Part shown: positions 3,163 to 31,300 of the stretch, piece by piece
Numbering within the stretch: position 1 is the stretch's first letter
Layout of the letters: each line of letters begins with the position of its first letter
From: Candidatus Nanopusillus sp.
GTDB taxonomy: Archaea > Nanobdellota > Nanobdellia > Nanobdellales > Nanobdellaceae
Direction of reading: 5' to 3'
Length of the DNA stretch: 32,000 nt
Assembly: GCA_049414405.1 (NCBI GenBank)
Contig: JBMSAQ010000008.1
Span: forward strand, 25,505 to 57,504
Position numbers and translations under genes: made by a program
Notes under the pieces: model-generated
Told to the model about the DNA's origin: nothing
The model's database searches: none
What the model saw: only the letters and a program-made list of their open reading frames with translations

Positions 3163-3507
3163 ATGAAGGGTATAATATTAAATTATAGGATGGGTAGGCA
3201 TCATATATATCCAAATCAAGTAATAGTAAAATTTGAAAATATAAATAATAAGTATGAGGCAAGTAAGTATATTGGAAAGCATGTGATATGGGTAAGTCCT
3301 GGAAAGAAAATTTTTATTGGAAAAATTGTTGATACACATGGAAATAAGGGTAATTTAAGGGTTAGATTTAATAAAGGAATACCAGGACAAGCTTTAGGAG
3401 ATATTGTTTTATTAATTGATAATATAAATAAAGTAAAAGAAATAAAGGAAAAAATAAAAAATGCAAAAGATATAAATCAGATAAGGAGTATTTTAATTAA
3501 TGCTTAA
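3163..3507 (+). CDS. rpl35ae: Large-subunit ribosomal protein eL33 (L35Ae)
   Basis: MKGIILNYRMGRHH..., ASKYIGKHVIWVSPGKKIFIGKIVDTHGNKGNLRVRFNKGIPGQALGDIV closely matches the archaeal L35Ae pattern (G.vl.yrR......EA..liG..V.w....GK...GKI...HG..G.vrarF.kGlPgqAlG..v). It carries a ~25-aa K-rich C-terminal extension. Confidence 0.8.
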   Translation: MKGIILNYRMGRHHIYPNQVIVKFENINNKYEASKYIGKHVIWVSPGKKIFIGKIVDTHGNKGNLRVRFNKGIPGQALGDIVLLIDNINKVKEIKEKIKNAKDINQIRSILINA

Positions 3508-4939: not shown

Positions 4940-6088
4940 ATGAAGTATAATTTAAATAAAGAGATAGAAGAATTGTTCTTTGAAAGATTTAAGGATTTTA
5001 ATCCAATTCAAAAAATAGCAATTCCTGAAATATTAAATGGAAATAATACTTTAATTATTGCCCCCACAGGATCTGGAAAAACAGAAGCTGCAATATTACC
5101 TGTATTCTCAAAAATATTAGAATTAAAGGAAAAAGGAATTGAAAACCAATTATTGGGGATTTATATAACACCATTAAGGGCATTGAATAGAGATATATTG
5201 GATAGAATAAAATGGTGGTGTGATAATTTGGGTATATCTGTTGCAATTAGACACGGAGATACAGAAGAAAAAGAGAGGGTAAGATTATCTAGAAAACCTG
5301 TAGAATTTTTGATAACGACTCCAGAAACTTTTCAAGTATTATTTTTAGGAAAAAGATTAAGAGAACAGTTGAAAACGGTAAAATATGTTATTATAGATGA
5401 ATTACATGAATTATTAAATGAAAAAAGAGGAATACAATTATCTTTAGGTTTAGAAAGATTGGTAAATTATGCTGGAGAATTTCAGAGGATTGCGTTATCT
5501 GCAACAATAGGTGATTTAGATGAAGCTTCAAAATTTATTTTTGGATATAGGAATTATAAAGTTGCATATTGGTATGCGGAGAAAAAATATCATATAGAAG
5601 TATATTATCCAAAAATTAGTGAAGAAGATTTGGAATTGGCAAGGAAATATAATTGGAATCCAAAAATAGCATGGAGTTTAAGGAAAATTAAAGAAATATT
5701 AGATAAACATAGATCTGTAATAATATTTGTAAATACAAGAGAAATGGCGGAATTATTATCTTCAAGATTCAAGGTTTGGCTACCTGAATATAAAATTGAA
5801 ATACATCATAGTTCTTTATCAAGAGAAGTAAGAGAAAGAAACGAAAGATTATTTAAGGAAGGTAAAATTAAAGCAATTATTGCAACATCTTCTTTAGAAC
5901 TTGGTATAGATATTGGATATGTTGATGCTGTTATTCAATATAATTCGCCTAGACAAGTTACAAGATTGATACAAAGGATTGGAAGGGCTGGTCATAAATT
6001 ACATGAAGTATCCATTGGATATATAATTACAACAGATGTGGATGATTATGCAGAGAGTTTAGCGATTAAAAAATTTGTTTTAGAATAA
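4940..6088 (+). CDS. Lhr-like superfamily-2 DEAD/DEAH helicase, two-RecA-domain core only (382 aa)
   Basis: Motifs seen: Q (FNPIQKIAI), I (APTGSGKT), Ia (YITPLRALNRD), Ib (TTPE), II (DELHELLNEKRGIQLSLGLERL, Lhr-style), III (SAT), VI (QRIGRAGH). The ORF ends ~30 aa after motif VI. Confidence 0.75.
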   Translation: MKYNLNKEIEELFFERFKDFNPIQKIAIPEILNGNNTLIIAPTGSGKTEAAILPVFSKILELKEKGIENQLLGIYITPLRALNRDILDRIKWWCDNLGISVAIRHGDTEEKERVRLSRKPVEFLITTPETFQVLFLGKRLREQLKTVKYVIIDELHELLNEKRGIQLSLGLERLVNYAGEFQRIALSATIGDLDEASKFIFGYRNYKVAYWYAEKKYHIEVYYPKISEEDLELARKYNWNPKIAWSLRKIKEILDKHRSVIIFVNTREMAELLSSRFKVWLPEYKIEIHHSSLSREVRERNERLFKEGKIKAIIATSSLELGIDIGYVDAVIQYNSPRQVTRLIQRIGRAGHKLHEVSIGYIITTDVDDYAESLAIKKFVLE

Positions 6089-8178: not shown

Positions 8179-8949
8179 ATGGTTTATAAAGTTGTTGTAG
8201 ATTTGATTAAAGCAGCAGAAAAGCATTTAGAAAATGTAGAAAGAATAGAACTTGATTTAGCTGGGAGGAGAGTACTTGGAAATCCCGAAATATCTAGAGA
8301 AATATCTAGAGAAATTGGAGAAGTCAAAAAATATGTACAATTGATAAAAAATATTGATAAAGAATTTAATGAAATAGACAAAAAATTCAAAGAGATAATG
8401 GGAGGATGTACCAATAAATATCATAAATTATTGGAAGAATTAAAAAGAAATAGATTAGAAAATACGGATTTATATAGAAGGGTTAAGAAGATTCATGATA
8501 TATGCGAATTTCTACATAAGAATGGATTAGGTTCTGATAAATTATTTTATGAAGGAGTTTCTATCATATCTAGTGAATCAACTAACATAAAAAGAGAAAT
8601 AGGGAGTATAATAACAAGTGGAAAACTTAATAGATATGTAATAAATAAGAATTTAATAGATGACATTAAGAAAATATTTGGAGAAATAAATACAGAAGTA
8701 AGTAAAAACCTTGAGATACAAGTAACAAATAAAATTGTAGAAATTGATAATAATATAAAGAATTTAATAGATAGAATCAAGAAAATATATGGTCATATAA
8801 AGAATTATGAAAATATATATAAGAATATAGCAAAAGCTGAGAAAGATTTACATGAAGAAATCGTAAAATTAGAGAAATTACATGGAGAGATTAGACCTTT
8901 AGGTGCAGCATTGGCTAATCTTGAAAAGTATATAGCTTTAAGACATTAA
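8179..8949 (+). CDS. Hypothetical coiled-coil protein (256 aa), probable paralog of 9009..9722
   Basis: Helical K/E/I/N-rich ORF with its own TATA-like box. The segments FKEIMGGCTNKYHKLLEEL and ICEFLHKNGLGSD line up with FDGIMNDFNSHYRTFVDRI and ITYITSHGIHSVD in the next ORF. Confidence 0.55.
   Translation: MVYKVVVDLIKAAEKHLENVERIELDLAGRRVLGNPEISREISREIGEVKKYVQLIKNIDKEFNEIDKKFKEIMGGCTNKYHKLLEELKRNRLENTDLYRRVKKIHDICEFLHKNGLGSDKLFYEGVSIISSESTNIKREIGSIITSGKLNRYVINKNLIDDIKKIFGEINTEVSKNLEIQVTNKIVEIDNNIKNLIDRIKKIYGHIKNYENIYKNIAKAEKDLHEEIVKLEKLHGEIRPLGAALANLEKYIALRH
8288..8311 (+). repeat. In-frame 12-nt tandem repeat (gaaatatctaga x2, plus a partial third copy)
   Basis: Direct reading: gaaatatctaga gaaatatctaga gaaatt, encoding EISR-EISR-EI inside the 8179 ORF. 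Confidence 0.85.
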
Positions 8950-9008: not shown

Positions 9009-9722
9009 ATGACAATTTCATCAAGTGTGGGAATGCCACCTAATTTAATATGCAAATCATTTATTAATAAGTTAAATCTACTCGGTAATACTATAAGGGA
9101 ACGTTTTGACAAAAATATAGATATTAAATATCAAAAAAATATAAAAAGGACGGTAGAGAAAATTGAAAAAATTAAAAGAGAAATAGAAGAAATTCAAAAA
9201 ATTTTCGATGGAATAATGAACGATTTTAACTCTCATTATCGTACATTTGTTGATAGAATAGTTAAAGAATTAAATAGCGCACATATAAAAAGTAATTTAC
9301 CACAATATTTAAGCGAACTTGGTAATACTATTACATATATAACAAGTCATGGTATACATTCAGTTGATGAGATTAAAAAGAAAAAAAAGGAGATAAAAGA
9401 AATAAAGAAAAAAATTAATGAAGAAATAAATTCGAAGGGCATGAATTTACATCGTCTTCTCTTGATTGCTAATGAATATGATAATATATTTCAAAATCTT
9501 ATAGGTATAAAACTAAGATCAAAAGTTCTGAGTAGAATGATGAATATAAAAAATGAATTAGATAATTTGAAAAAGGAAATTAAAAATATAAATGTTAAGA
9601 ATAAAAATAATATGAAAAAAGAAATAGAAAAGGAAATAAATGAATTAATAAAAGAACTGAAAATGTCAATTAAATTTTTAGAAGAGTTTATAAAATATAT
9701 ATCCCATATATTAAAGGTATAA
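9009..9722 (+). CDS. Hypothetical coiled-coil protein (237 aa), probable paralog of 8179..8949
   Basis: Same helical composition and shared local motifs with the preceding ORF. It has its own TATA-like box. Confidence 0.55.
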   Translation: MTISSSVGMPPNLICKSFINKLNLLGNTIRERFDKNIDIKYQKNIKRTVEKIEKIKREIEEIQKIFDGIMNDFNSHYRTFVDRIVKELNSAHIKSNLPQYLSELGNTITYITSHGIHSVDEIKKKKKEIKEIKKKINEEINSKGMNLHRLLLIANEYDNIFQNLIGIKLRSKVLSRMMNIKNELDNLKKEIKNINVKNKNNMKKEIEKEINELIKELKMSIKFLEEFIKYISHILKV

Positions 9723-9726
9723 ATAA

Positions 9727-10476
9727 TTATAGATTGCTAACCCTATATTCATGCAAGATTGTCTTTTTCATTAAATTCTTTATTTCTAATGATTTTTCCA
9801 ATGCCAGATTTAACGCATCATTTAATTCCTTACTCGAAATTTCTCCATCTAACTGTATTAAAGTAAATTTTTTCTCAGAAGGAGTTATTGCAACCGGTAT
9901 ATCTGTAGCTCTTCCTTCTCCATAATATTCTATATATTTTGATTTTTCAGAATCTTTTTTTAATTTTTCAGAATTATAATCTTCCTCTTCCTTATTTAAA
10001 TCTACAACAATTTTTTCTCCAACTTTTCCAACTGCTAGAGCTACTACCAAATCTTTCATTGGAATACCTGCTAAAGCTAATGCTAAAGATGCCGCATTTA
10101 TACTTGCAGTCCTGGTCCCAGCATCTGCATTTAATATTTCAATATATATATCTATAATGCTTCCAGGAATTTCTTCTAATAATAATGCTGGTTCTAATGC
10201 CCTCTTAATCACTTCAGATAATTCAATTTCTCTTCTACCAGGCGTAGGCTTCTTTCTTTCAGGTGTAGAAAATGTTAACATATTATATCTAACCCTTAAG
10301 AATGCTTTTTCATAATCTAAGGACATTTTTGATGGTTTCGGTCCATATACAGCAGCTAATGCAACTGTATCACCAAAAGAAAATATTGCAGATCCTTTTG
10401 CATTATCAATTACATTTAACTTTATATTTATTTTCCTTAATTGGTTATATTCTCTACCATCAAACCTTTTCACCAT
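9727..10476 (-). CDS. rrp41: Exosome complex RNase PH-domain subunit Rrp41
   Basis: DGREYNQLRKINIKLNVIDNAKGSAIFSFGDTVALAAVYGPKP and ADAGTRTASINAASLALALAGIPMKD match the RNase PH/Rrp41 signatures, including the GTRTA phosphate-binding loop. It lies directly downstream of rrp4 with a 2-nt gap. There appears to be a ~19-aa K/E/S-rich insertion before GEGRATDIPVA. Confidence 0.85.
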   Translation of the reverse strand: MVKRFDGREYNQLRKINIKLNVIDNAKGSAIFSFGDTVALAAVYGPKPSKMSLDYEKAFLRVRYNMLTFSTPERKKPTPGRREIELSEVIKRALEPALLLEEIPGSIIDIYIEILNADAGTRTASINAASLALALAGIPMKDLVVALAVGKVGEKIVVDLNKEEEDYNSEKLKKDSEKSKYIEYYGEGRATDIPVAITPSEKKFTLIQLDGEISSKELNDALNLALEKSLEIKNLMKKTILHEYRVSNL

Positions 10477-10478
10477 TT

Positions 10479-11078
10479 CTATTTATTTTCTAAAATCTCT
10501 TTAACTTTTTCAGTTAAGCCACTTTTATAAGAATTGTTTATAATAAATCTAATAATATCTACTGCTTTATATACATCATTTATATTGCCATTTAAATATA
10601 TTCTTCCATTTTTTCCAATTATTATATCAATCTTCAAATATTCTTTGATTAAATTCAGCATTGATGAATTTTTTCCAATTAATCTTGGAATTCTTACCGG
10701 ATCAACCTTTAATATTAATCCATCATTTAACTTTTCCTTTTTCTTAATCTCTAAATCTATTAATTTATTCTTTGTCATTCTCACGATTTGGCATAATATA
10801 TAATCACCATAAGTATATAAATCATTAGGGTCTACCCCAATTTCTTTTAAGGATGATTTACCTAAGTATGGGGAATTTATATCAATTAGCCACCCATTCG
10901 ATAACACATCAATCACTTTTCCAATTATAATATCATTTACTTCTGGCATATAGTATCCGAAAAGCCTTGTAGTTTTATCCTCTTTTACTAATAATATATA
11001 TTTTGAACAATAATTATTATTTCTTTCATACGAATTACTATCTTTTTTCCTTAGATTATCTCCAGGTATCAATATCAT
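10479..11078 (-). CDS. rrp4: Exosome RNA-binding cap subunit Rrp4 (S1 + KH domains)
   Basis: S1-like segment IIIGKVIDVLSNGWLIDINSPYLG, then KH-like RIPRLIGKNSSMLNLIKEYLKIDIIIGKNGRIYL (GxxG-type loop). It sits in the conserved position upstream of rrp41. At 199 aa it is shorter than typical Rrp4. Confidence 0.75.
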   Translation of the reverse strand: MILIPGDNLRKKDSNSYERNNNYCSKYILLVKEDKTTRLFGYYMPEVNDIIIGKVIDVLSNGWLIDINSPYLGKSSLKEIGVDPNDLYTYGDYILCQIVRMTKNKLIDLEIKKKEKLNDGLILKVDPVRIPRLIGKNSSMLNLIKEYLKIDIIIGKNGRIYLNGNINDVYKAVDIIRFIINNSYKSGLTEKVKEILENK

Positions 11079-11079
11079 C

Positions 11080-12186
11080 CTATAAATAATATATTATATC
11101 ATTTTTAAACATATTTTCTAACATATATCTACTTTCATTTTTATGTTTTATCTTTTCAGCTTCATTTTCTAATATTGAAAATACATCTTTTATTGTTGAA
11201 TATAGGTCATATCCATGATCATCAATTGTGAATTTACCATTATTATGTATTAATTTTGCTTTAATTTGATAGTATATTTTTTTGTTTATCTTATTTTCAT
11301 TTATCTTTTTGATATGTAATGATAATCTAATGTTTTCTCCCAAAACATTTCTGTATTTTTTATAAAATTTTTCATACATTTTTTTAATATGATTAATGTC
11401 TATTTCATCTAAAGGTATCCCATGAACAACTAGATTATATTCTTTTTCCCTTTTATGCTGTAAATAACTTATTAATATATCTTTTGCTGTTATTATACCA
11501 GTTAAATTGCCGTTGTTCAATATCGGTAATGAAAATACTTTATTTTCTATCATTAAATTAATTATTTTCTCTATATTGTCATCAATATTTGCAAATATTA
11601 ATTTACTATTCATTATTGATCTTATCTTTATATCAAAATCTTTTTCATTTGGTGTTCTTATATTATTATTATTATCAATTAGCATATATTTTAATATATC
11701 TGTTAATGAAATTATTCCAGATACTTTATTATTTTTATCCAATACTATTAATCTCGATATGCCTTTGTCTTTCATTGTACCAATTGCTTTTTTAATATTA
11801 TCATCTTCATATATTGTATAAGCTTCATTTATTATTTCATTTAAATTCATTTTCTTCAATATGTCTTTGTCATTTAATATTTCTTTTAATATATCATATA
11901 TATTAACTATCTTTATTTTTCCATTTTCTCTTACAAAAGTTACTCTAGAATTAGAATTAATTAATTTCTCTACTATATCAATTATGTTATTCGTTTTTAA
12001 TGGTTTTATCCTATTTACTACCTTTTCAATTTTTGTATCTGGTCTATATAAATATCTAATTGCTTTGGAATTTTCTAAAACACCCAAGATTTTTCCATTA
12101 TTGTCTGTTACAATTATATCTTCTCCTTTCTTTATATATTCAACAATATCTCTTATTTTTTTATCTTTAGGTATGAATATTGCCAT
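11080..12186 (-). CDS. Four-CBS-domain protein with a C-terminal RaiA/HPF (S30AE)-like domain
   Basis: Four CBS-type units, e.g. ISRLIVLDKNNKVSGIISLTDILKYML and VFSLPILNNGNLTGIITAKDILISYL. C-terminal aa ~250-350 (nt 11137..11439) read LVVHGIPLDEIDINHIKKMYEKFYKKY / IRLSLHIKK / YYQIKAKLIH / GKFTIDD / HGYDLYSTIKDVFSILENEAEKIKHK. This follows the beta-alpha-beta-beta-beta-alpha order and key positions of bacterial HPF as I recall it. Confidence 0.6.
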   Translation of the reverse strand: MAIFIPKDKKIRDIVEYIKKGEDIIVTDNNGKILGVLENSKAIRYLYRPDTKIEKVVNRIKPLKTNNIIDIVEKLINSNSRVTFVRENGKIKIVNIYDILKEILNDKDILKKMNLNEIINEAYTIYEDDNIKKAIGTMKDKGISRLIVLDKNNKVSGIISLTDILKYMLIDNNNNIRTPNEKDFDIKIRSIMNSKLIFANIDDNIEKIINLMIENKVFSLPILNNGNLTGIITAKDILISYLQHKREKEYNLVVHGIPLDEIDINHIKKMYEKFYKKYRNVLGENIRLSLHIKKINENKINKKIYYQIKAKLIHNNGKFTIDDHGYDLYSTIKDVFSILENEAEKIKHKNESRYMLENMFKNDIIYYL

Positions 12187-12216
12187 TAATTTATATAATA
12201 AAAAATTTTTAAATGA

Positions 12217-12864
12217 TTATTTTCTACTTTTCGTGAATTCTGGTAACTCATATAGAGCTTCTGCAGGTGCTATGAAGAAGTATTTCTTCTTACGTTTTTT
12301 CTTTGGAGGTTCATCCTTTTTATATACCCAATATAGAGCTGCAAGTACAAATCCTCCTATTATGAGGTATGGAAGTAAACCACTAAATATCAATGCAACC
12401 ATTATTTCTGTCATTATATTTTGAGCAGCGGTTCCAAATCCTTCAAAATCTACTGAAGATGCATATAGAAATGCAAATAAAACAGTAAGAGTTAGAAGGC
12501 CGACAATAACATTATGAGAAGATTGTTTATATTTCTGAAATTCATCATCTCCCCCATATGGTTCTGATATACCAGCCATTAATGCAATAATCATTAAAAT
12601 GAAAAATATGATAAGTATTTCAAAAAAGAAGAATGATATAAAGTATGAAGTAAATATAACATCAGATATGCTATATAGATAGTAGAATGCTATTACTATA
12701 GAAATTATTGCATACAATTTCTCTTTACTAGGATTATCTCTTCCAAACAAACCAATTTTTCTAAGAGATCCATATAATAATGAAAATACTAATAAAAATG
12801 GTGCTACAATCGTAAATATACCATATTGTGAAAATAAAGCATAAATAAATGATGACGACTCCAT
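12217..12864 (-). CDS. Uncharacterised polytopic membrane protein, tandem paralog 3 of 3
   Basis: N-terminal motif FSQYGIFTIVAPFLLVFSLLYGSL is shared with the two upstream ORFs. About 5 hydrophobic helices. Basic C-terminal tail KKDEPPKKKRKKK. Confidence 0.6.
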   Translation of the reverse strand: MESSSFIYALFSQYGIFTIVAPFLLVFSLLYGSLRKIGLFGRDNPSKEKLYAIISIVIAFYYLYSISDVIFTSYFISFFFFEILIIFFILMIIALMAGISEPYGGDDEFQKYKQSSHNVIVGLLTLTVLFAFLYASSVDFEGFGTAAQNIMTEIMVALIFSGLLPYLIIGGFVLAALYWVYKKDEPPKKKRKKKYFFIAPAEALYELPEFTKSRK

Positions 12865-12869
12865 TTTAT

Positions 12870-13469
12870 TTACTTTGATGATGCTGAGCCTCCGCTCGAT
12901 CCGCTTTTCTTATCCCCACCAACTACCCACATTATTACTAAGAATACAAGTCCAAATACAACTAATAATGCCAACATACCGGATTGCATAAGATAGTCAA
13001 GTATTTGAAGTAATAAGGATATCAATGGTAATGATGATGAAGATGACCCTGAAATACTTAAAGAATTCATGGCTAGCCATAATATTATTCCTACAACAAG
13101 AAATGCAAAAAATGCCCTTAATCCTCCTGGTATCTTTTTATTTGTAAATGCCAAAGCAATAGCCAGTAGAGAAAATCCAATTATAACTAAAGTAGCCTTA
13201 GGAATAAAAGATAATAACCATATTATCAAATCCTGATTATATATTGATAAAAGGGCAAATCCAAGAGAAAATAAAGCACTTAATTTTCTACCTACAGTAT
13301 CATCAGGACTTGCTTTTAATAAATTGGACAATTCTAATAACATGAATACCAAAGAAAATATTAATAAAAATGGTAAAACAAAATTTATAATTCCATATTG
13401 TGATAGTAACTGGTTAAAATTTCCCTGAACAAAACCTATTTGTGATGATAGTTGATTTAAGTCTGTCAT
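12870..13469 (-). CDS. Uncharacterised polytopic membrane protein, tandem paralog 2 of 3
   Basis: Motif LSQYGIINFVLPFLLIFSLVFMLL. About 5 hydrophobic helices. Ser-run loop (GSSSSSLP) and G/S/K-rich tail. Overlaps paralog 1 by 4 nt. Confidence 0.6.
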   Translation of the reverse strand: MTDLNQLSSQIGFVQGNFNQLLSQYGIINFVLPFLLIFSLVFMLLELSNLLKASPDDTVGRKLSALFSLGFALLSIYNQDLIIWLLSFIPKATLVIIGFSLLAIALAFTNKKIPGGLRAFFAFLVVGIILWLAMNSLSISGSSSSSLPLISLLLQILDYLMQSGMLALLVVFGLVFLVIMWVVGGDKKSGSSGGSASSK

Positions 13470-14041
13470 TTTGATTTTGGAGGTTCTGATTTTTGGCCTT
13501 TTTCAGGTTTCACAGCCCAATATGCTATTCCAAACATTATCGCAAGAACTGCTAAAGTTTCTATAAATGGTTGTAATGAAGAAAGTACCGGAGATGTTAG
13601 TGCAGAATTAATATAATTATACAATCCAAGTATAAATATCACCATTAATGTAAATATAATTATAGAAGATGCTAATAAAACCATCCTTGCCCTATTACCT
13701 ATTTGTACTTCTCCACTCTTTTCTTCTCTCTGTAAAAATGGAGAAATTGCTAATATAAGGAAAAATACTGTTAATAAAAATAACACTAAATATGGGATTA
13801 AGGTTTTTAATGATAATACTACATTTGCAGATCCAACTATAAAAAATCCTGTAGATGCAGATATGATTGATATTAAACTCCTTGCAACCTTTCCTTTATC
13901 CCCTTCAGCAAAAGGATCACCTAATATTTTATATTTACTTAATATACCATACATTATAGCATAAACTAGCAAAAATGGTAATATAACATTAAAGAATCCC
14001 AGGTTGTTCAATAATGTTAAGAATGTATCATAAAATGCCAT
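13466..14041 (-). CDS. Uncharacterised polytopic membrane protein, tandem paralog 1 of 3
   Basis: Motif LNNLGFFNVILPFLLVYAIMYGIL. About 5 hydrophobic helices. Charged tail KPEKGQKSEPPKSK. Starts 26 nt downstream of the ferredoxin pair. Confidence 0.6.
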   Translation of the reverse strand: MAFYDTFLTLLNNLGFFNVILPFLLVYAIMYGILSKYKILGDPFAEGDKGKVARSLISIISASTGFFIVGSANVVLSLKTLIPYLVLFLLTVFFLILAISPFLQREEKSGEVQIGNRARMVLLASSIIIFTLMVIFILGLYNYINSALTSPVLSSLQPFIETLAVLAIMFGIAYWAVKPEKGQKSEPPKSK

Positions 14042-14540: not shown

Positions 14541-15368
14541 GTGGAATTAAATGATATTTTTGTTAGAGTAACGGATATAACAGATTATATTTTTTGCCCC
14601 AGAAAAGTTTATTTGAAAAGAGTTTTGGGATATTCAGAAGAAGATACTGAACAGAAAATATTTGGATCAATTATTCATTCTTTATTTGATAAAATAAATG
14701 AAAAAGAGAAAGAGATAATATTTAATATAAAGGAGTTTGTTGAATATGAAAAAATATTAAATTTATATAATAATTTTTTAATAAAATTATTGGAAGAATC
14801 TATAAAAGAATTTGAAGAACAGATAAAAAATTTAAATTTAGATAAAAATGATATAAAGATAAAGGCATATAGTTATGTAATAAAAGACATAGAAGACAGA
14901 GCGAAAAATGTGTTTAATTTTATGAAAGATAATGATTTATATGGAATAGAATTATGGGAATTCTTGGAACCAAAAATAAAGACAGAATTTGATGTTACAT
15001 CTTTGAAATATAATATAGTTGGTAGGATCGATAAGTTAGAAATATATAAAAAACATATAATACCTTATGAAATAAAATCCGGATTTTTTAGAAAGGAACA
15101 TATTACACAATTATACTCATACTACTTATTATTGAAGGATGAATTTCCAAATTATGATATAAGAAAAGGTATATTATTATATGCAAAGAATAATCATAAA
15201 ATAGAAATAGAGTTTAAAAATAATAGTGAAATAAAGAAAATATTAGATATAAAGGATAAGATAATTGATATGATTGATAATAAAGAAGATCCTGGAAAAA
15301 AATTTTCTGAAAAATGTAAAAAATGTGCATTTTACAATATTTGTTGGAAAAATGGAAATAAAAATTGA
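14541..15368 (+). CDS. Cas4/RecB-family (DUF83/PD-(D/E)xK) nuclease with a 4-Cys Fe-S cluster signature; not next to any CRISPR array or other cas gene in this window
   Basis: N-terminal Cys in ITDYIFCPRKVYL. Nuclease core GRIDKLEIY...IPYEIKSG (D...ExK). QxxxY motif (ITQLYSYYLLL). C-terminal CKKCAFYNIC (CxxCx5C). GTG start, with no in-frame ATG nearby. Confidence 0.8.
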   Translation: MELNDIFVRVTDITDYIFCPRKVYLKRVLGYSEEDTEQKIFGSIIHSLFDKINEKEKEIIFNIKEFVEYEKILNLYNNFLIKLLEESIKEFEEQIKNLNLDKNDIKIKAYSYVIKDIEDRAKNVFNFMKDNDLYGIELWEFLEPKIKTEFDVTSLKYNIVGRIDKLEIYKKHIIPYEIKSGFFRKEHITQLYSYYLLLKDEFPNYDIRKGILLYAKNNHKIEIEFKNNSEIKKILDIKDKIIDMIDNKEDPGKKFSEKCKKCAFYNICWKNGNKN

Positions 15369-16116
15369 TACTAAAAAAAGTATATATGAAAACATAAACG
15401 AAATATATGAAAAAATAAAAGAATTAAAAAATAAAAAACAGAAAATAGAAAATTTGATAAAAGAATTAGAAGAAAAATTAAATAACATTGAGGAAAAAAT
15501 AGTTATTGAAAAAAAGAAAGAAGAAATTAAGAGAAACAAAAAATGGTATGAAAAATTTAGATGGATGTTTACAACGAATAATTTTCTGTTAATTGCTGGA
15601 AAAGATTCTATTACAAATGAAATCATTATAAATAAATATTTAGAAAAAAATGATTTGATATTTCATGCAGATATTGTGGGATCCCCCTTTGGTATATTAA
15701 AAAATGGAAGAAATGCAAGTGAAATAGATATATATGAAGCTGCAAAATTTGTTGGATCATATTCTAGAGCATGGAAAAATAAATTATCTTCCATAGATGT
15801 ATATTATGTATACCCAGATCAGATATCAAAGAAGGTACCTTCTGGAATGTATTTAAAAAAAGGTTCTTTCATGATATACGGGGAGAAGAATTATGTAAAA
15901 GTAAATTTAGAGATTGCATTGGCATTTGAAAATTATAATGTCATACCAGGAGTACCTGAAAGTATAAAAGATAAATATAAAAGATATGTTATATTAATTC
16001 CTGGAAATAAGAAACCAATCGATATCTCAAAACAATTAGAAAATATTTTTAAAGTTGATTACAACATTATATTAGGATACCTTCCAGGTGATAGTGATAT
16101 ACTATACATCAGGTAA
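15352..16116 (+). CDS. NFACT-R (DUF814) domain protein with an N-terminal coiled coil; resembles the C-terminal half of an RqcH/NEMF/FbpA-like factor
   Basis: KWYEKFRWMFTTNNFLLIAGKDSITNEIIINKYLEKNDLIFHADIVGSPFGILKNG...AAKFVGSYSRAWK...VYYVYPDQISKK matches the DUF814 pattern (W.e.frwf.s..gf.i..Gr...qNe.l......D.wfHa...GS.vvlk...aA.lAa.yS.aw). The track ORF starts at 15274. I chose the ATG at 15352 (MEIKIDTKK) because the first 26 codons overlap the Cys-cluster end of the Cas4-like gene, but the start is uncertain. Confidence 0.7.
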   Translation: MEIKIDTKKSIYENINEIYEKIKELKNKKQKIENLIKELEEKLNNIEEKIVIEKKKEEIKRNKKWYEKFRWMFTTNNFLLIAGKDSITNEIIINKYLEKNDLIFHADIVGSPFGILKNGRNASEIDIYEAAKFVGSYSRAWKNKLSSIDVYYVYPDQISKKVPSGMYLKKGSFMIYGEKNYVKVNLEIALAFENYNVIPGVPESIKDKYKRYVILIPGNKKPIDISKQLENIFKVDYNIILGYLPGDSDILYIR

Positions 16117-18181: not shown

Positions 18182-18709
18182 CTATATATATTTTAGAAAA
18201 TTAATTATTATATTTTTATTTAAAACTTCTGGATGAAATAATGAAAAATATATGTTTTTATATTTATACAATACTGGAATATTTTCTACCATTCCAATTA
18301 TATAAAATTTTTCATCAATCTTCGGAATCTTTGTTATCAAAAAATATGCTTCAAAATCTTTATCAATTATCTTATCTTTATTAATTATTTTTACATAATA
18401 TTTTCCAATTAATTCTTTATCTTCAAAACCATAATTTAATAATTTTGTTAATATTTGACTTCCAGAACATATTGCAAGAGTTTTTATATTGTTTTCAATT
18501 ATAAATTCGAAATTTTTTATATAATTTAAATAATCAAAATCCATTATTGCAGTACCTGTTACTATTATTTTTTCAAAATATTCATTTACTTTATCTTTAT
18601 ACGAAAAAATTTTATAATTAATGTTTAATTTTTTTAAGATATTTACTATTGGATATAGGAACTCATATTTTGATAATCCTTCTTTATTTGTATGAATTAT
18701 TCCAATCAT
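18182..18709 (-). CDS. Class-I glutamine amidotransferase-like protein (GuaA-subunit-A-like size and layout)
   Basis: Nucleophile-elbow-like LAICSGSQIL (consensus G-x-C-x-G-x-Q) and a C-terminal FSLFHPEV (His-Glu of the triad, consensus FHPE). At 175 aa it is similar in size to stand-alone GATase subunits. Overlaps the upstream PP-loop gene by 4 nt. Confidence 0.55.
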   Translation of the reverse strand: MIGIIHTNKEGLSKYEFLYPIVNILKKLNINYKIFSYKDKVNEYFEKIIVTGTAIMDFDYLNYIKNFEFIIENNIKTLAICSGSQILTKLLNYGFEDKELIGKYYVKIINKDKIIDKDFEAYFLITKIPKIDEKFYIIGMVENIPVLYKYKNIYFSLFHPEVLNKNIIINFLKYI

Positions 18710-19371
18710 TTTAAATAAGCATCTTTTATAATATATTCTGCATAATTTTTTTCTATTTTTATTTCATAATCTTTTATTATTATCTTTTTCTTAAATAATG
18801 GTTGATATAAAACAAAGGTTTCATATTCTCCACCTTCTCCCGCAATATTTATTTTATATTTTTCTTTATATTCAATTAATTTTTTTATTATATTTTCATC
18901 AACAACTTTTCCTAAAATATTTATATCTAATGGATAGGTATACCATCCAACAATTATAAAACGAAAATTATTTTCCAATAATTCATATAAATATTCTTCT
19001 TCATCCTTTAGCCATAAAGGGTTAAAACACCATAGATTTAATCTCCTGCATATCCTTTGAAATCTAGATCCTTGATATGTAGACCTAATTGCCCCAGTAA
19101 CAATTCCATCAATATTATATTTTTCTTTTAAATATTTTAGCACTTCAAACAATGTTTCCTCTTCATTATTATTTATATTAAATCTTTCTATCGGTATATT
19201 CAGAGCTTTTGATTGTAGTTCAGTTAAATTATTATTAATATAATGATATAAATAACTTTCATTATTTTTTGGAATTATATTTAATAGTACAGATATCTCA
19301 TGATATTTTGATGCAATATATAATGAATAGTTTGAATCCTTTCCTCCAGAATATAATACTCCAAGCCTCAT
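18706..19371 (-). CDS. PP-loop ATP pyrophosphatase of the MJ0570/Dph6 (diphthine-ammonia ligase) family
   Basis: N-terminal MRLGVLYSGGKDSNYSLY (SGGKDS PP-loop), GAIRSTYQ..R, and C-terminal AGEGGEYETFVLYQPLF are the hallmarks of this family as I know it. Confidence 0.75.
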   Translation of the reverse strand: MRLGVLYSGGKDSNYSLYIASKYHEISVLLNIIPKNNESYLYHYINNNLTELQSKALNIPIERFNINNNEEETLFEVLKYLKEKYNIDGIVTGAIRSTYQGSRFQRICRRLNLWCFNPLWLKDEEEYLYELLENNFRFIIVGWYTYPLDINILGKVVDENIIKKLIEYKEKYKINIAGEGGEYETFVLYQPLFKKKIIIKDYEIKIEKNYAEYIIKDAYLK

Positions 19372-20144: not shown

Positions 20145-22349
20145 ATGGCAAGTTTAACTGAAAGAATATTGAAAGTTATGAATAATCCGAATAATATAAG
20201 GAATATAGGTATAATTGCGCATATACACCATGGAAAGACAACATTGACAGATTCTTTATTGGCAGGCGCGGGAATGTTGGCTGAGGAACTTGCAGGCGAG
20301 GCAATGTTTACGTGGTGGCATGAAACTGAAAGAGAAAGAGAAATGACAGTATACGGAGCAGCAGTTTCAATGGTTCATAATTATGAAAATCAAGATTATT
20401 TGATAAATTTAATAGATACTCCCGGACACGTAGAATTTTCCGGACAGGTTACCAGAGCTACTAGAGCTATTGATGGTGCAATTGTTGTAGTGGATTTTGT
20501 TGATGGAATAATGCCTCAAACAGAAACTGTATTGAGGACTGCATTGAAAGAATATGTAAAACCAGTATTATTTATAAATAAAACCGATAGAGCAATTACA
20601 GAGCTAAAATTATCTCCACAACAAATTATGGAAAGAATTGGAAAAATAGTTATTGAAATAAATAGATTAATCGATAAATACTCTCCTCCAGAATTTAAGG
20701 GAAAATGGAACGTAAATGTAAATGACGGATCTGTTGCATTTGGATCTGCAAAATTTCATTGGGCATTGTCAGTACCTTTTATGAAAAAATATAATGTTTC
20801 ATTTAAAGATATAATTGAAATATATAATCAATTTTTAGAAGATAAAGAAAAGTTAAAGGAAGAGATGAGAAAAAAGGCACCCGTTGCAAAAGTTGTATTA
20901 GATATGGTTATAAAGCATTTACCTTCTCCAGTTGAAGCACAAAAATACAGAATTCCTAATATATGGAGGGGAAATATAAATTTAGATGTTGGAAAAGCAA
21001 TGTTAAATTTAGATTCGAATGGACCAATAGTAATAAATGTAACAAACGTAATAATTGATAAGGTATCAAAACAAGAGATTGCAACTGCAAGGATATTTTC
21101 AGGTACTTTATCGAAAGGTGATGATGTATTTTTAATTCAAGCTGGAAGACAAATAAAAATACAACAGGTTGCTGTATGGAAGGGAATACAAAGAATAAAT
21201 GTAGATTCTGCAAAGGCTGGTAATATAATTGCTTTAGTTGGAATAAAAGGATTATATCCAGGAGAAACAATTATTGGAAAGGTTCAAGATCCAAAAAGTG
21301 TTGAAACATTTGAAGAAATGAAACATTGGTTAGATCCTGTAGTTGTAAAATCTTTTGAACCAAAGAATCCAAATGATTTACCAAAATTAATTGAAACATT
21401 AGATTTATTAACAAGAGAAGATCCAACAATGAAAGTTGAACAGAAGAGAGATACTGGGGAAATTTTAGTATCTGGTTTAGGAGATTTACATTTACAGATA
21501 ATAGAATATAGAGTACAAAATGATTTTGGAATACCTGTAAAGGTTGGAAATCCGATAGTAATTTATAGAGAATCTGTTAATGGGGTTACGCAAACATATG
21601 AAGGAAAATCTCCAAATAAACATAATAAAATATATATACAAATTGAACCTTTACCATATGAAATATATGAAAAAATGAGGGGGTATATTAGGGAAGGAAA
21701 AATCCCCGAAGGAAGAATTAAAAGGGAAGATTTATGGAAAGTATTCAATGAGATTGGATTTGATAAAGAAGAAGCAAGGAGAATTATAATGGTACAAAAT
21801 GGGAATGTATTGATTGATATGACAAGAGGTATTGTTCATTTACCAGAAGTAATAGAATATATAGTAGAAGGGTTTAAGGAAGTTATGAATCAGGGTCCAT
21901 TAGCCTGGGAACCTTGTATAATGATGAAAGTTAAATTAATTGATGCAGTATTACATGAAGACGCAATCCATAGAGGTCCTGCCCAAATAATTCCAGCAAC
22001 AAAAGATGCAATTAAAAGTGCTATTCTTGAACAACCAACATTATATGAACCATTGCAAGTTATAAGGATTGATACTCCTCCAGAAACCATCGGGGATGTA
22101 ACATCTATATTACAATCAAGAAGAGGACAGATATTAGAAATGAATATTGAAGAAGAAAGAGCAACAATTAAGGCAAAGGTGCCTGTAGCAAATATATTTG
22201 GATTTACAGATGAATTAAGATCTGCAACATCTGGAAGGGGTGTTTGGTTCTTAGAAGATCAGGTATATGAGAAAGTCCCAAAAGATTTACAACAGCAAAT
22301 AGTAGATTCTATAAGAAAAAGAAAAGGAATACCAGAAGGGGTTCACTAG
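20145..22349 (+). CDS. fusA: Archaeal translation elongation factor 2 (aEF-2)
   Basis: GTPase motifs AHIHHGKTT (G1), DTPGHVEF (G3), NKTDR (G4). Full five-domain length (734 aa). The diphthamide-site motif HEDAIHRGPAQIIPA has its target His at codon 609 (nt 21969..21971). Confidence 0.95.
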   Translation: MASLTERILKVMNNPNNIRNIGIIAHIHHGKTTLTDSLLAGAGMLAEELAGEAMFTWWHETEREREMTVYGAAVSMVHNYENQDYLINLIDTPGHVEFSGQVTRATRAIDGAIVVVDFVDGIMPQTETVLRTALKEYVKPVLFINKTDRAITELKLSPQQIMERIGKIVIEINRLIDKYSPPEFKGKWNVNVNDGSVAFGSAKFHWALSVPFMKKYNVSFKDIIEIYNQFLEDKEKLKEEMRKKAPVAKVVLDMVIKHLPSPVEAQKYRIPNIWRGNINLDVGKAMLNLDSNGPIVINVTNVIIDKVSKQEIATARIFSGTLSKGDDVFLIQAGRQIKIQQVAVWKGIQRINVDSAKAGNIIALVGIKGLYPGETIIGKVQDPKSVETFEEMKHWLDPVVVKSFEPKNPNDLPKLIETLDLLTREDPTMKVEQKRDTGEILVSGLGDLHLQIIEYRVQNDFGIPVKVGNPIVIYRESVNGVTQTYEGKSPNKHNKIYIQIEPLPYEIYEKMRGYIREGKIPEGRIKREDLWKVFNEIGFDKEEARRIIMVQNGNVLIDMTRGIVHLPEVIEYIVEGFKEVMNQGPLAWEPCIMMKVKLIDAVLHEDAIHRGPAQIIPATKDAIKSAILEQPTLYEPLQVIRIDTPPETIGDVTSILQSRRGQILEMNIEEERATIKAKVPVANIFGFTDELRSATSGRGVWFLEDQVYEKVPKDLQQQIVDSIRKRKGIPEGVH

Positions 22350-25710: not shown

Positions 25711-27039
25711 TTATATATTAAATATTTTTCTCTGATAATCTTCTAAGAAAAATATGTCTTCTCCTAAGGTATATCCATAATCTGATACAATATTATAATA
25801 TGATGCCTTTTTATTTATATCTCCGTGATTTGGTATTATATATTCTGGATTTAGCATTTTTATTAACATTATATGATCTTGGCTTTTTGCATGACCTGAT
25901 ACATGTACATCTTTTATTATTTCTGCTTTTCTTCTTTTTAATCTTTCTTCTAATATTTTTCTATTTGCTTCATTTATTGGATGTGGGATTACATTATTTG
26001 CAAATATTACTGTTGTATTACTTAGAACAAAATTATATTCTCCTCTTGCTATTCTATCTAAAACAGAACCAGGTTCCCCCTGATGTCCGGTAACAATTAA
26101 TAAATACTCTTCTTTATTCTTTTCAACTTTTTCTAAAACTTTTTTATAATCTCTGGCGTCAAAATATACTTCCGCCTCTTGAGAAAAATTATATAAATTA
26201 ATATTTTCTGCTGCATTAATATATTTTCCCAAACTTCTTCCAAGAAATATAGGTTTTCTATTTATCTCTTTTGATAATTCAACTATTAATTTTAATCTTG
26301 CAATATGTGATGAAAATGTTGTTATAATTACTCCCTTTGTATCTATTGAAGTTAATACATCATATAACATATATCTTTCAATAATTTCTGATTGGGATTT
26401 TGAATTTTCATCTGCTCTTGTCGTTTCGGGAATTAATAATAAAACTCCTTCCTTTCCAATTTTCTTTAATTTTTCTTTATCAGGTTTTTTACCAATAACT
26501 GGAAAATTATTAAATTTAAAATCACCAGAAAATATTATATGACCCTTATTTGTTTGAATATCAATCATTAATGATTGTGGAATTGAATGAGTAATATTAA
26601 TAAAATTAATTAAAATATTCTCTGAAATTTTAATTGAAGAATTTGGGGATATTTTCTTTAAATCATTTGGTAAAACAATTCCATATTCTTTTTCTTGTTG
26701 TTTTATTAATTCAATTGTATATGGAGATGCATAAATTGGTGCATTGTATTTTGGTGCAATAAAGTTTACAGCACCTATATGATCTAAATGCCCATGCGTT
26801 AATATTATTGCCTTTACTTTGTCCCTATATTTTTCTAAAATTGAATCATCTGGTATTATATCTAAATCATATAATTCTTTTAATGGTTTATTTATTATAT
26901 CTTCTCTTTCTCCAAATTGAGATATTTTATCTACATTTATTCCAATATCTATTATAATTATTTTATCATCAATTCTTATTGCACTCATATTTTTTCCTAT
27001 ATATGAATATCCACCTATTGGAAAAATTTCAATTTCCAT
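25711..27039 (-). CDS. rnj: Archaeal RNase J (metallo-beta-lactamase / beta-CASP ribonuclease)
   Basis: N-terminal IFPIGGYSYIGKNMSAIRIDDKIIIIDIG (RNase J GG..eIGkN signature), HxHxDH motif ILTHGHLDHIGA, beta-CASP C-terminal HVSGHAKSQDH. At 442 aa it lacks the KH domains of aCPSF1. Confidence 0.75.
   Translation of the reverse strand: MEIEIFPIGGYSYIGKNMSAIRIDDKIIIIDIGINVDKISQFGEREDIINKPLKELYDLDIIPDDSILEKYRDKVKAIILTHGHLDHIGAVNFIAPKYNAPIYASPYTIELIKQQEKEYGIVLPNDLKKISPNSSIKISENILINFINITHSIPQSLMIDIQTNKGHIIFSGDFKFNNFPVIGKKPDKEKLKKIGKEGVLLLIPETTRADENSKSQSEIIERYMLYDVLTSIDTKGVIITTFSSHIARLKLIVELSKEINRKPIFLGRSLGKYINAAENINLYNFSQEAEVYFDARDYKKVLEKVEKNKEEYLLIVTGHQGEPGSVLDRIARGEYNFVLSNTTVIFANNVIPHPINEANRKILEERLKRRKAEIIKDVHVSGHAKSQDHIMLIKMLNPEYIIPNHGDINKKASYYNIVSDYGYTLGEDIFFLEDYQRKIFNI
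25712..25725 (-). promoter_or_regulatory. TATA-like box for the pilin-ATPase-platform operon, overlapping the 3' end of the RNase J gene
   Basis: The minus strand reads atatttaatataaa, centred ~24 nt upstream of the ATG at 25695. Confidence 0.4.
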
Positions 27040-29389: not shown

Positions 29390-31300
29390 ATGGACTTAAA
29401 TGAAAAAATAAAATTCTTTATTAGTAAAGGATTCTTTTATGAATCTCAAAGTATATATGGAAGTAGATCTGGATTTTATGATTATGGATCTTTAGGTACA
29501 TTATTAAAGAGAAGATTTGAAAATCTATGGAGAATGTATTTTGGAAAATTATTTGATAATATATATGAAATACAACCTTCAGAAATAATGCATAAAAATA
29601 CATTTATTGCATCAAAGCATTTAGAATTATTTAATGATCCAATTGTTGAATGCAAAAATGGACATAGATTTAGGGCAGATAAATTGATTGAAGAAAAATT
29701 AAATATTAAGGCGGAGAGTTTAACAATTGAAGAAATGAATAAAATATTTAATGAAAAAGTTGTTGTTTGTCCTGAATGTGGATCAAAATTATCAAATGTT
29801 AGATTATTTAATTTAATGTTTCCAATATACGTAGGACCTGCATATAATTTATTCTTAATTTTAGAAGAATTAAAAAGAAGATATAGTTTTTTAATGAAAA
29901 ATTATAAAAAAATAAATGAAAGAGAGGTAAATTATATAATAAAAAACTATTTGAAAAATAAAAAGTTATATTCGATAAATTTAAATAATGAAAAATATAT
30001 TTTTGATGGAAATAAAGAAATAATAATAAAAATTAAAAATGAAGAATATTATGTTTATCCTGAAAATATTGAAATAAAAGAAGAAGAAGAAAATTATTTA
30101 GAAATATTAGGATATGCTGAAGAAATTGAAACTTATTATGATTTAGAAGAGTTATTATATAATTTAATAAAAAGTTATACCGAATTAAAAAACAATGAAA
30201 TGTTTTTAAGACCAGAAACTGCACAAGGTCCATATGTAAACTTCCCAGTCGAAATAATAATTAATAGATATAGGTTACCTTTAGGATTGTATGTAATTGG
30301 AAAAGCATTTAGGAATGAAATATCTCCAAGGAATGCATTATTAAGAATGAGGGAATTTACACAGGCAGAATTACAGATTTTCTTTGATTATTATAATAAT
30401 CCATTTGAAAATGAATTCGAATTTTATAAAGATAAATATATTAATGTTTTATTAGTAAAAGATAGGGATAAGAAATTACCATATATTGAAAAAAGCTTGG
30501 AAGAAATATGTAACGAAACAAATATAGATAAATTTTATTTATATTTTCTATATAAAGTATTTGAATTTTACACAAACATATTAAGAATTCCAAAAGAAAG
30601 AATAAGATTTTATCAATTATCAGATAATGAAAAGTCTTTCTATAATATGTATCATTTTGATATAGAATTATATTTAGATGAAATTGGATGGATAGAAGTT
30701 GGAGGAATTCATTTTAGAGTATTAAGATTTAATAGAGATATAATTGATAAGGTTGATGAAGAAATAAGAAAAGATGTTGAAAATTTATTTATTGGAAATG
30801 AAATATATGTTGGATACGATCTATGGAATCATTTTATATTATCGAAAGATAGGAGATTTATATTAACAAGGCCAAATGGATCAAAATTTATCCCGGTTGA
30901 ATTAGAATTATCCTTTGGAGTTGATAGAAATATATTTTCCCTATTATTAATTAATTATGATGGAAGAATATTAAGATTACCATATTATTTATCTCCAATT
31001 CAAATTGCAGTATTTCCATTATTGGAAAATAATGAAAATATGGCAAAAGTAGCAAAGGAAATATATAACAAATTGAGAAAAAGGTTTGATGTATATTATG
31101 ATGAATCTGGAAGGATTGGTGTAAGATATAAAAGACAGGATGAAATTGGAACATATTATTGTATTACTGTAGATGATCAAACATTAAAAGATAATACAGT
31201 TACAATAAGATTTAGGGATACAAAGGAACAAATAAGGGTAAATATAAATAATTTAGAAAAATTCTTTGAAGAAAGATTTGATATTTGGAAAATTTTATAA
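29390..31300 (+). CDS. glyS: Glycyl-tRNA synthetase, archaeal/eukaryal alpha2 type, with a large lineage-specific insertion
   Basis: FNLMFPIYVGP, FLRPETAQGPYVNF, IGKAFRNEISPRNALLRMREFTQAELQIF (motif 2), ELSFGVDR (motif 3 region), and a C-terminal anticodon-binding domain (QIAVFPL...GRIGVRYKRQDEIGTYYCITVD). Confidence 0.9.
   Translation: MDLNEKIKFFISKGFFYESQSIYGSRSGFYDYGSLGTLLKRRFENLWRMYFGKLFDNIYEIQPSEIMHKNTFIASKHLELFNDPIVECKNGHRFRADKLIEEKLNIKAESLTIEEMNKIFNEKVVVCPECGSKLSNVRLFNLMFPIYVGPAYNLFLILEELKRRYSFLMKNYKKINEREVNYIIKNYLKNKKLYSINLNNEKYIFDGNKEIIIKIKNEEYYVYPENIEIKEEEENYLEILGYAEEIETYYDLEELLYNLIKSYTELKNNEMFLRPETAQGPYVNFPVEIIINRYRLPLGLYVIGKAFRNEISPRNALLRMREFTQAELQIFFDYYNNPFENEFEFYKDKYINVLLVKDRDKKLPYIEKSLEEICNETNIDKFYLYFLYKVFEFYTNILRIPKERIRFYQLSDNEKSFYNMYHFDIELYLDEIGWIEVGGIHFRVLRFNRDIIDKVDEEIRKDVENLFIGNEIYVGYDLWNHFILSKDRRFILTRPNGSKFIPVELELSFGVDRNIFSLLLINYDGRILRLPYYLSPIQIAVFPLLENNENMAKVAKEIYNKLRKRFDVYYDESGRIGVRYKRQDEIGTYYCITVDDQTLKDNTVTIRFRDTKEQIRVNINNLEKFFEERFDIWKIL

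Follow-up and report, generated by a model that had tools for sequence, protein, structure and literature searches.

A probable Nanopusillus orthologue of the archaeal ribosome hibernation factor HibA/AHA, encoded directly upstream of two exosome genes

Introduction

A 32,000-nucleotide stretch of DNA from Candidatus Nanopusillus sp. (GenBank assembly GCA_049414405.1, contig JBMSAQ010000008.1, positions 25,505 to 57,504 of the forward strand; hereafter the window) carries, directly upstream of the exosome genes rrp4 and rrp41, a gene whose product joins four CBS units to a C-terminal domain of the HPF/RaiA type. We regard this gene, with a probability of about 0.9, as encoding the orthologue in Nanopusillus of HibA/AHA, an archaeal ribosome hibernation factor built of two modules; the assignment is based on the predicted fold, full-length homology, motif conservation, and profile and structure searches. 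A first-pass annotation of the window had proposed the fusion of a CBS sensor with an HPF/RaiA hibernation fold. This proposal is supported by sequence, profile and structure, and it matches the published HibA (PMC13324472) and AHA (PMC12934967). The architecture had already been published in 2025–2026, and the present case is a correct rediscovery of it, not a new system. What is possibly new is the tight, lineage-specific operon with exosome genes and, in addition, a divergent form of the loop which in HibA enters the peptidyl-transferase centre (PTC).

HibA was described from Pyrococcus abyssi (Q9UYR4; hereafter Pa-HibA) and Thermococcus barophilus (Madru et al., Nat Commun 2026; PDB 9SR9–9SRF and 9T7H; PMC13324472), and AHA from Haloferax volcanii (HVO_2384; Souza et al., bioRxiv 2026; PMC12934967). 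Their role in hibernation has been established by cryo-EM and genetics. The C-terminal domain (CTD) occupies the 30S subunit's mRNA/tRNA channel, while the CBS module binds the 50S subunit at the PTC, uL5 or the L1 stalk and inserts a long CBS3 loop into the PTC; in deletion mutants, 70S ribosomes are lost and recovery from stationary phase is poor (PMC13324472, PMC12934967). HibA has been found in 47% of 4026 archaeal genomes, from all major lineages (PMC13324472), and AHA in 2,723 species of 17 phyla (PMC12934967). Candidatus (Ca.) Nanopusillus acidilobi belongs to the genome set of the HibA study, in which forms consisting of HPF only occur mostly in DPANN archaea and Nitrososphaerales (PMC13324472).

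Homology to HibA

The start codon of the gene is backed by an initial methionine that is invariant in 16 homologues. A ‘CBS domain-containing protein’ from a metagenome-assembled genome of Candidatus Nanopusillus sp. matches the product at 100% identity, and proteins from Ca. Nanopusillus acidilobi and Ca. Nanobsidianus stetteri match it at 89%. At source, some homologues are named ‘RaiA’, including one that shares 89% identity with the product, or ‘ribosomal subunit interface protein’. When the whole protein was searched against the PDB with phmmer, the best match (E=3.6e-19) was chain H of 9SR9, a 392-aa protein deposited as ‘Dehydrogenase’, which is the ‘HibA-ATP’ structure of Madru et al. 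(PMC13324472). The alignment is collinear through both modules, from residues 19–354 of the query to residues 32–380 of the chain.

Word-indexed homologue searches reached only Nanoarchaeota; the wider family was reached by an exhaustive HMMER profile search. With a Nanopusillaceae profile, this search returned 163 cluster representatives at E<=1e-30, mostly 360–410 aa in length and matching from about position 5 to 355. The layout of a CBS module followed by a C-terminal HPF domain was present in 100 of 148 representatives (median length 382 aa), the HPF-like domain being counted with our own, narrow CTD profile. A profile of 122 family proteins matched Pa-HibA (9sr9_H) over residues 4–382 with 397 bits (E=9.3e-118), and CBS-only ribosome factors scored at most 210 bits with it. 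Distant Nanoarchaeota homologues, at 25–29% identity, carry precomputed assignments to both PF02482 and PF00571. A 406-aa ‘CBS domain-containing protein’ in the PDB (9l96_a; also 9l98, 9l9c and 9l9v) is matched over its full length by the HibA-family profile (E=2e-83) and is apparently a second solved HibA-like factor; a literature search for a paper on PDB 9L96 found none.

The C-terminal domain

An HPF-like segment had been proposed at residues 250–350 (nucleotides 11137–11439). It was recovered by a CTD profile, by hhalign and by AlphaFold2 (AF2) modelling with Foldseek, and the six residue correspondences to E. coli HPF on which the proposal was built were all reproduced, in the same register, by HMMER and hhalign. 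A hidden Markov model (HMM) of the CTD alone, made from 12 homologues and searched against all PDB sequences at E<=1, gave 26 matches, 24 of them to HPF, RaiA, YfiA or PSRP1. The top match was E. coli HPF, with E values of 7.6e-6 to 1.2e-5 over HPF residues 2–95. Bias terms in this search were small, which indicates that the K/I/N-rich composition is not the cause of the similarity to HPF. Taken singly, 10 of the 12 family CTDs matched PF02482 (best E=1.4e-10), and in hhalign the 12-homologue CTD alignment matched E. coli HPF with a probability of 88.8% (E=2.5e-6, 90 columns).

The predicted structure agrees with these results. An AF2 model of the CTD alone has HPF topology at a predicted local distance difference test score (pLDDT) of 86.9. 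In a Foldseek search with this model, ranks 1–38 were all HPF, RaiA, YfiA, pY, PSRP1, RafH or MPY, and scores collapsed afterwards; the TM-score on the target reached 0.83, with a root-mean-square deviation of about 2–3 Å. The CTD is homologous to the proteins covered by curated bacterial HPF models, yet it lies outside those models.

Two features of the domain are of the archaeal type. Between strands b2 and b3 lies an insertion of 11 residues, opposite which E. coli HPF is gapped in the HMMER and hhalign alignments alike, and which is collinear with residues 321–330 of Pa-HibA. In the P. abyssi protein, E323, K324, F325, R326 and V328 contact G496 of h18, A1461 of h44 and the protein uS12 (PMC13324472). 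The C-terminal extension is modelled with falling pLDDT, as a helix at 351–367 in the full model and as a single unbroken helix when the CTD is modelled alone. Within it, Y354 is nearly invariant and aligns with Y380 of Pa-HibA, which contacts uS7 (PMC13324472). The terminal helix of AHA is likewise longer than that of HPF (PMC12934967), and the tail of Pa-HibA runs to the mRNA exit channel (PMC13324472). In all 16 homologues the CTD has an isoelectric point of 8.0–9.5; that of the CBS module ranges from 5.4 to 9.3.

The CBS module and its nucleotide site

That the 368-aa open reading frame (ORF) contains four CBS units, as first proposed, is confirmed by Pfam CBS (E=3.2e-29, with three stretches above threshold) and by the AF2 model of the full protein. 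This model, built on 16 homologues, has a pLDDT of 87.2 and a predicted TM-score of 0.84, and shows CBS-type units at approximately 1–50, 55–105, 113–170 and 186–246. Its Foldseek matches are the CBS tetrads of MJ1225, AMPK-gamma, SriA-D and Dri, with E values down to 8e-16. The first 50 PDB matches of the full model were all CBS tetrads and masked the HPF signal, so the CTD-only model was used for the latter. The PDB library searched with Foldseek was dated 8 April 2026 and is apparently older than the HibA entries.

The ribose-binding motifs G-h-h-S/T-x-x-D of CBS3 and CBS4 have their G, S/T and D invariant in 16 homologues; those of CBS1 and CBS2 are degenerate. Across 122 family representatives, hardly any columns are invariant or nearly so, and G157, G230 and D236 belong to these few. 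At the level of motifs, this pattern matches the published nucleotide site of HibA and AHA and predicts such a site here. HibA binds ATP or AMP at the CBS3/CBS4 interface (PMC13324472), and AHA on the ribosome carried two AMP at the same interface (PMC12934967). The loop that follows CBS3, IDNNNNIRTPNEKDFDIKI, is the positional equivalent of the ‘PTC loop’ of HibA and ‘loop 3’ of AHA; it aligns with residues 189–210 of Pa-HibA, is three residues shorter, and is modelled with a pLDDT of 86–94.

By homology to HibA of P. abyssi and AHA of Hfx. volcanii, as seen by cryo-EM, the CTD would sit in the 30S subunit's decoding-centre (mRNA/tRNA) channel, with the b2–b3 hairpin reaching h18, h44 and uS12 and the long C-terminal helix and tail directed toward the mRNA exit. 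The CBS tetrad would occupy the tRNA sites of the 50S subunit. One polypeptide would thus bridge both subunits, holding the empty 70S ribosome together, blocking translation and shielding rRNA from nucleases. AMP, ADP or ATP would bind at the CBS3/CBS4 interface, where occupancy would probably report the energy charge of the cell.

Relationship to known factors

The window protein resembles HibA in its four CBS units followed by an HPF/RaiA domain, collinear over residues 19–354, in the nucleotide motifs of CBS3 and CBS4, in the extended loop after CBS3, in the b2–b3 insertion, and in the basic CTD with its long C-terminal helix and tail. It differs in being 24 residues shorter (368 versus 392 aa), in its shorter PTC loop, in which Tyr195 is not retained, and in several rRNA-contacting arginines, which are not conserved. 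The gene also differs from that of HibA in its operon with rrp4 and rrp41, and it is carried by an obligate DPANN ectosymbiont whose genome is about 0.6 Mb in size. AHA, going by its published description, belongs to the same family under another name: its CBS tetrad is related to AMPK-gamma, has loop 3 of CBS3 placed at the PTC and carries two AMP where CBS3 meets CBS4, while its HPF domain, with a terminal helix that is longer, lies on the 30S subunit.

Bacterial HPF and RaiA (YfiA, pY) and plastid PSRP1, which bind the 30S decoding-centre channel, share the fold of the CTD (TM-score up to 0.83; profile E of about 1e-5). Unlike the window protein, the bacterial proteins have no CBS module, and long HPFs carry a C-terminal dimerisation domain which makes 100S particles; the window protein, for its part, has the 11-residue b2–b3 insertion and a longer terminal helix. 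Homologous CBS tetrads occur in SriA-D/ARC of Methanosarcina acetivorans (9ZNF, 9ZNG and 9ZNI) and Dri of Pyrobaculum (9E6Q and 9E7F), at Foldseek E values of 1e-15 to 1e-12 and HMMER family-profile scores of 160–210 bits. These proteins bind ribosomes in dormant cells, but they lack an HPF domain; Dri carries two tetrads, and the Sri factors, each a protein of its own, bind in tandem. Factors consisting only of CBS tetrads and HibA largely exclude one another phyletically (PMC13324472, PMC12934967). AMPK-gamma and MJ1225 have the same four-CBS disc, with adenine nucleotides at the CBS3/CBS4 sites, but they are kinase regulatory subunits or proteins of unknown role, and have no ribosome-binding domain.

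Gene order around hibA

The features of the gene and of the operon are listed in Table 1. The first-pass annotation had placed the gene 1 nt from rrp4; position 11079 is indeed the sole intergenic base, and NCBIfam confirms the identity of both exosome genes. Rrp4 is short, and its score against the NCBIfam Rrp4 model lies under the cut-off (150 versus 200 bits). The gap between rrp4 and rrp41 is 2 nt. Such spacing leaves no room for an internal promoter, so hibA is very probably the first cistron of a hibA-rrp4-rrp41 unit and co-transcribed with the two exosome subunits, probably with translational coupling. The 30-nt spacer upstream of hibA holds TTTAAAAA, which could be the TATA box of a leaderless transcript, though at about 20% G+C a match of this kind is weak evidence; the G+C content of the window is about 20–30%.

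Table 1. Coordinates of hibA, its predicted domains and sites, and the adjoining exosome genes (positions in the window)
Feature	Position	Strand	Residues and details	Basis
hibA/AHA-family gene (assignment probable)	11080..12186	(-)	368 aa; ATG start; stop codon 11080-11082	
N-terminal CBS module	11449..12186	(-)	aa 1-246; four CBS units = two Bateman modules	Pfam, AF2, Foldseek
Predicted adenine-nucleotide site	11479..11718	(-)	CBS3 and CBS4 motifs plus intervening loop	Motif conservation
CBS3 ribose-binding motif	11698-11718	(-)	157-GIISLTD-163	
CBS4 ribose-binding motif	11479-11499	(-)	230-GIITAKD-236	
Extended loop after CBS3	11623..11679	(-)	aa 170-188; IDNNNNIRTPNEKDFDIKI	Positional equivalent of HibA ‘PTC loop’ / AHA ‘loop 3’
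HPF/RaiA-type core	11146..11436	(-)	aa 251-347; b1 251-255, a1 264-282, b2 287-298, b3 303-314, b4 317-325, a2 328-347	AF2, Foldseek, profiles, hhalign
Archaeal-type b2-b3 hairpin insertion	11272..11304	(-)	aa ~295-305; INENKINKKIY	Without counterpart in bacterial HPF
C-terminal helix extension and tail	11083..11145	(-)	aa 348-368	AF2 models
rrp4, exosome cap subunit	10479..11078	(-)	199 aa	NCBIfam Rrp4 E=4.1e-44; Pfam RRP4_S1 and KH_6
rrp41, exosome RNase PH subunit	9727..10476	(-)	249 aa	TIGR02065 E=5.5e-77; Pfam RNase_PH E=2.3e-35
Upstream intergenic spacer	12187..12216	(-)	30 nt; TTTAAAAA at -27..-20 from the ATG	Sequence read

The same order, with three paralogous hydrophobic ORFs upstream of hibA-rrp4-rrp41, was found in all those Nanopusillaceae loci which extend beyond hibA. 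The loci compared comprise 13 in which rrp41 is reached and one (L002) that ends inside rrp4; some are the same contigs represented twice, and identity of the encoded proteins to the window protein ranges from 40 to 89%. Locus L008 ends upstream inside the second hydrophobic ORF, and L015 starts 58 nt before hibA, so that the upstream ORFs lie outside its span. In all loci covering the junctions, the gap is -1 to +2 nt between hibA and rrp4 and -8 to +3 nt between rrp4 and rrp41. A genome scan with the clade-specific pattern IITAKD[IL]L[IAV] yielded 10 loci, all of them from Nanopusillaceae. In three loci of a more distant Nanoarchaeota lineage (L016–L018, 28% identity), one of which (L016) ends 535 nt after hibA, neither rrp4 nor rrp41 was found beside the gene. 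The exosome link put forward initially is real and, among Nanopusillaceae, conserved, but as a feature of this lineage and not of the whole family.

The linkage is not mentioned in either the HibA (PMC13324472) or the AHA (PMC12934967) paper. Ribosomes left unprotected are likely to be threatened by the exosome, the chief 3' exoribonuclease of archaea (PMC13324472). In P. abyssi and Methanothermobacter thermautotrophicus, the gene for SBDS lies within the exosome operon or superoperon (PMC2890523, PMC2695463), and it was SBDS that the HibA study detected as the other factor on idle ribosomes of P. abyssi (PMC13324472). The view that hibA holds an SBDS-like operon position is attractive, albeit speculative; neither SBDS, rrp42 nor csl4 was found anywhere in the window. 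It could further be proposed that hibA was incorporated into the exosome operon, immediately 5' of rrp4, as a functional coupling which balances ribosome preservation against rRNA turnover, perhaps, in view of the divergent PTC loop, with changed 50S binding, and we consider this unlikely. The whole neighbourhood is collinear across Nanopusillaceae genomes, so adjacency alone is no proof of a functional link between hibA and the exosome.

The three tandem paralogous ORFs directly upstream of hibA (12217-12864(-), 12870-13469(-) and 13466-14041(-); 215, 199 and 191 aa) share 25–31% identity, are hydrophobic throughout and have a common N-terminal G-x-F-x-x-V-x-PFLL motif. They have no real Pfam match, the third giving only a weak one to T4SS_pilin (E=2.4e-4), and they are syntenic in all Nanopusillaceae loci that extend far enough upstream. 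On the other side, two lysine/glutamate-rich, coiled-coil-like ORFs (8179-8949(+), 256 aa, and 9009-9722(+), 237 aa) run towards the 3' end of rrp41 in convergent orientation. Their only Pfam matches are spurious, and relatives have different unannotated ORFs at that position.

Two Nanopusillus/Nanobsidianus loci (L008, positions 5230-5343, and L012, positions 10079-10159) contain a second, short match to the last 27–38 residues of Rrp41, at 74–78% identity, which lies some 1.6 kb downstream of rrp41 proper; this second fragment is absent from the window. In the complete genome of Ca. Nanopusillus acidilobi (L010, CP010514.1, 6001-7077), the match to hibA starts from residue 10 of the window protein, and the ORF finder gave no intact same-frame ORF from the equivalent start. 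This may come from the use of another start codon or from a difference in the local sequence.

Alternative interpretations

Several observations weigh against assignment to HibA/AHA. Identity to Pa-HibA is only about 20%, and the experiments and ribosome structures of the family come from members outside DPANN. The CBS module passes the Pfam check that had been suggested, but the HPF part does not: the protein scores 18.6–18.7 bits against PF02482, below the gathering threshold of 23.7 (E=0.003), and 18.8 bits against TIGR00741, whose cut-off is 40.9 (E=0.0017). The first of these shortfalls is explained by PF02482 itself, which misses most of the HibA family, recognising only 42 of the 122 representatives at E<=0.001. 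When the CBS module alone is searched against the PDB, MJ1225 (69.9 bits) and Pa-HibA (65.2 bits) score equally, so the module is not told apart from MJ1225 and its subfamily assignment depends on the fused architecture rather than on phylogeny.

The predicted ribosome contacts also differ in part. When 29 CTD contact positions of Pa-HibA (from Supplementary Data 1) were mapped by pairwise alignment, in a register that is uncertain at about 20% identity, about a third kept a similar residue, including R287, H291, E297, K299, K311, K333 and Y354. The h44-contacting R347, R362 and R366 of Pa-HibA align with D322, S337 and N341. In the loop after CBS3, whose sequence is not conserved, Tyr195 of Pa-HibA, which stacks on A2834 of 23S rRNA, aligns with the non-aromatic Asn173; because the loop is shorter and divergent and this tyrosine is not kept, insertion into the PTC may differ or be lost. 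Lastly, the description of the protein as ‘ligand-gated’ goes beyond published evidence. The CBS module of HibA does bind AMP, ADP and ATP (Kd 12, 65 and 113 uM, respectively), but the nucleotides barely altered the conformations of HibA on the ribosome (PMC13324472), and gating of hibernation by nucleotides is a hypothesis even for the founding members.

This divergence could be read as the mark of a HibA which, in the reduced Nanopusillaceae genome, kept its fold and shifted its role, perhaps to binding of the 30S subunit only, with PTC plugging lost, or to acting with the exosome in the control of rRNA or mRNA 3' decay in place of the classical preservation of 70S ribosomes. The altered PTC loop and the replaced arginines would fit such a shift, as would the tight, lineage-specific rrp4-rrp41 operon and the much faster evolution of hibA than of rrp41 in the same loci (40% versus 73–77% identity). 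However, homologues that are 40–89% identical show clear purifying selection on the CTD fold, its basic character, the b2–b3 insertion and the nucleotide motifs. The same site, moreover, is demonstrably bound by bacterial and by archaeal HPF domains whose contact residues differ, and the adjacency to exosome genes could be inherited gene order in a compact, collinear genome. We consider a change of role very unlikely. Still less credible, and indeed barely tenable, is the reading of the protein as a generic metabolic or transcriptional CBS regulator of the HhpR/CM-3 kind, whose resemblance to HPF would stem from chance or from K/I/N-rich composition. The public name of the identical protein mentions nothing beyond the CBS domain, one homologue is named ‘predicted transcriptional regulator’, and the single-sequence Pfam and NCBIfam HPF scores are sub-threshold. 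Yet profile, profile-profile and structure searches, each independent of the others, point to HPF/RaiA and to nothing else, the HMMER bias corrections are small, and the homology is full-length and collinear with a protein seen on ribosomes by cryo-EM. The CTD profile, the CTD Foldseek search and the match of the 122-protein family profile to Pa-HibA effectively refute a generic regulator, and an orthologue of HibA/AHA remains the preferred interpretation.

Other genes in the window

Another RNA-decay enzyme is encoded at 25711-27039(-). Genes related to translation are frequent, among them those for aEF2 (20145-22349), diphthamide synthase (18706-19371), eL33 (L35Ae; 3163-3507), a DEAD-box helicase (4940-6088) and a class II aminoacyl-tRNA synthetase (29390-31300). 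An ORF for a Cas4-like PD-(D/E)XK nuclease (14541-15368(+)) overlaps by about 95 nt the start of an ORF for NFACT-R (15274-16116(+)), an RNA-binding protein of ribosome quality control. The adjacency of these two genes is kept in all relatives, and the true start of NFACT-R is probably further downstream. In this stretch of a densely coding genome, ARAGORN found no tRNA genes in the 32 kb and no Rfam family reached its gathering threshold.

Concluding remarks

An obligate DPANN ectosymbiont with a 0.6-Mb genome thus appears to keep the full two-module HibA/AHA, and the presence of such a factor in a minimal archaeon supports ribosome hibernation as a core function even there. Both public annotation and the bacteria-centred PF02482 miss most of the family, and a HibA-specific model would improve the annotation of archaeal genomes. 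The conserved hibA-rrp4-rrp41 operon offers, in turn, a concrete hypothesis of cross-talk between hibernation and exosome-mediated rRNA decay. Co-expression of such a shield for rRNA with the main 3'-5' RNA-decay machine could amount to a functional coupling in an energy-limited symbiont, a reading that we consider unlikely.

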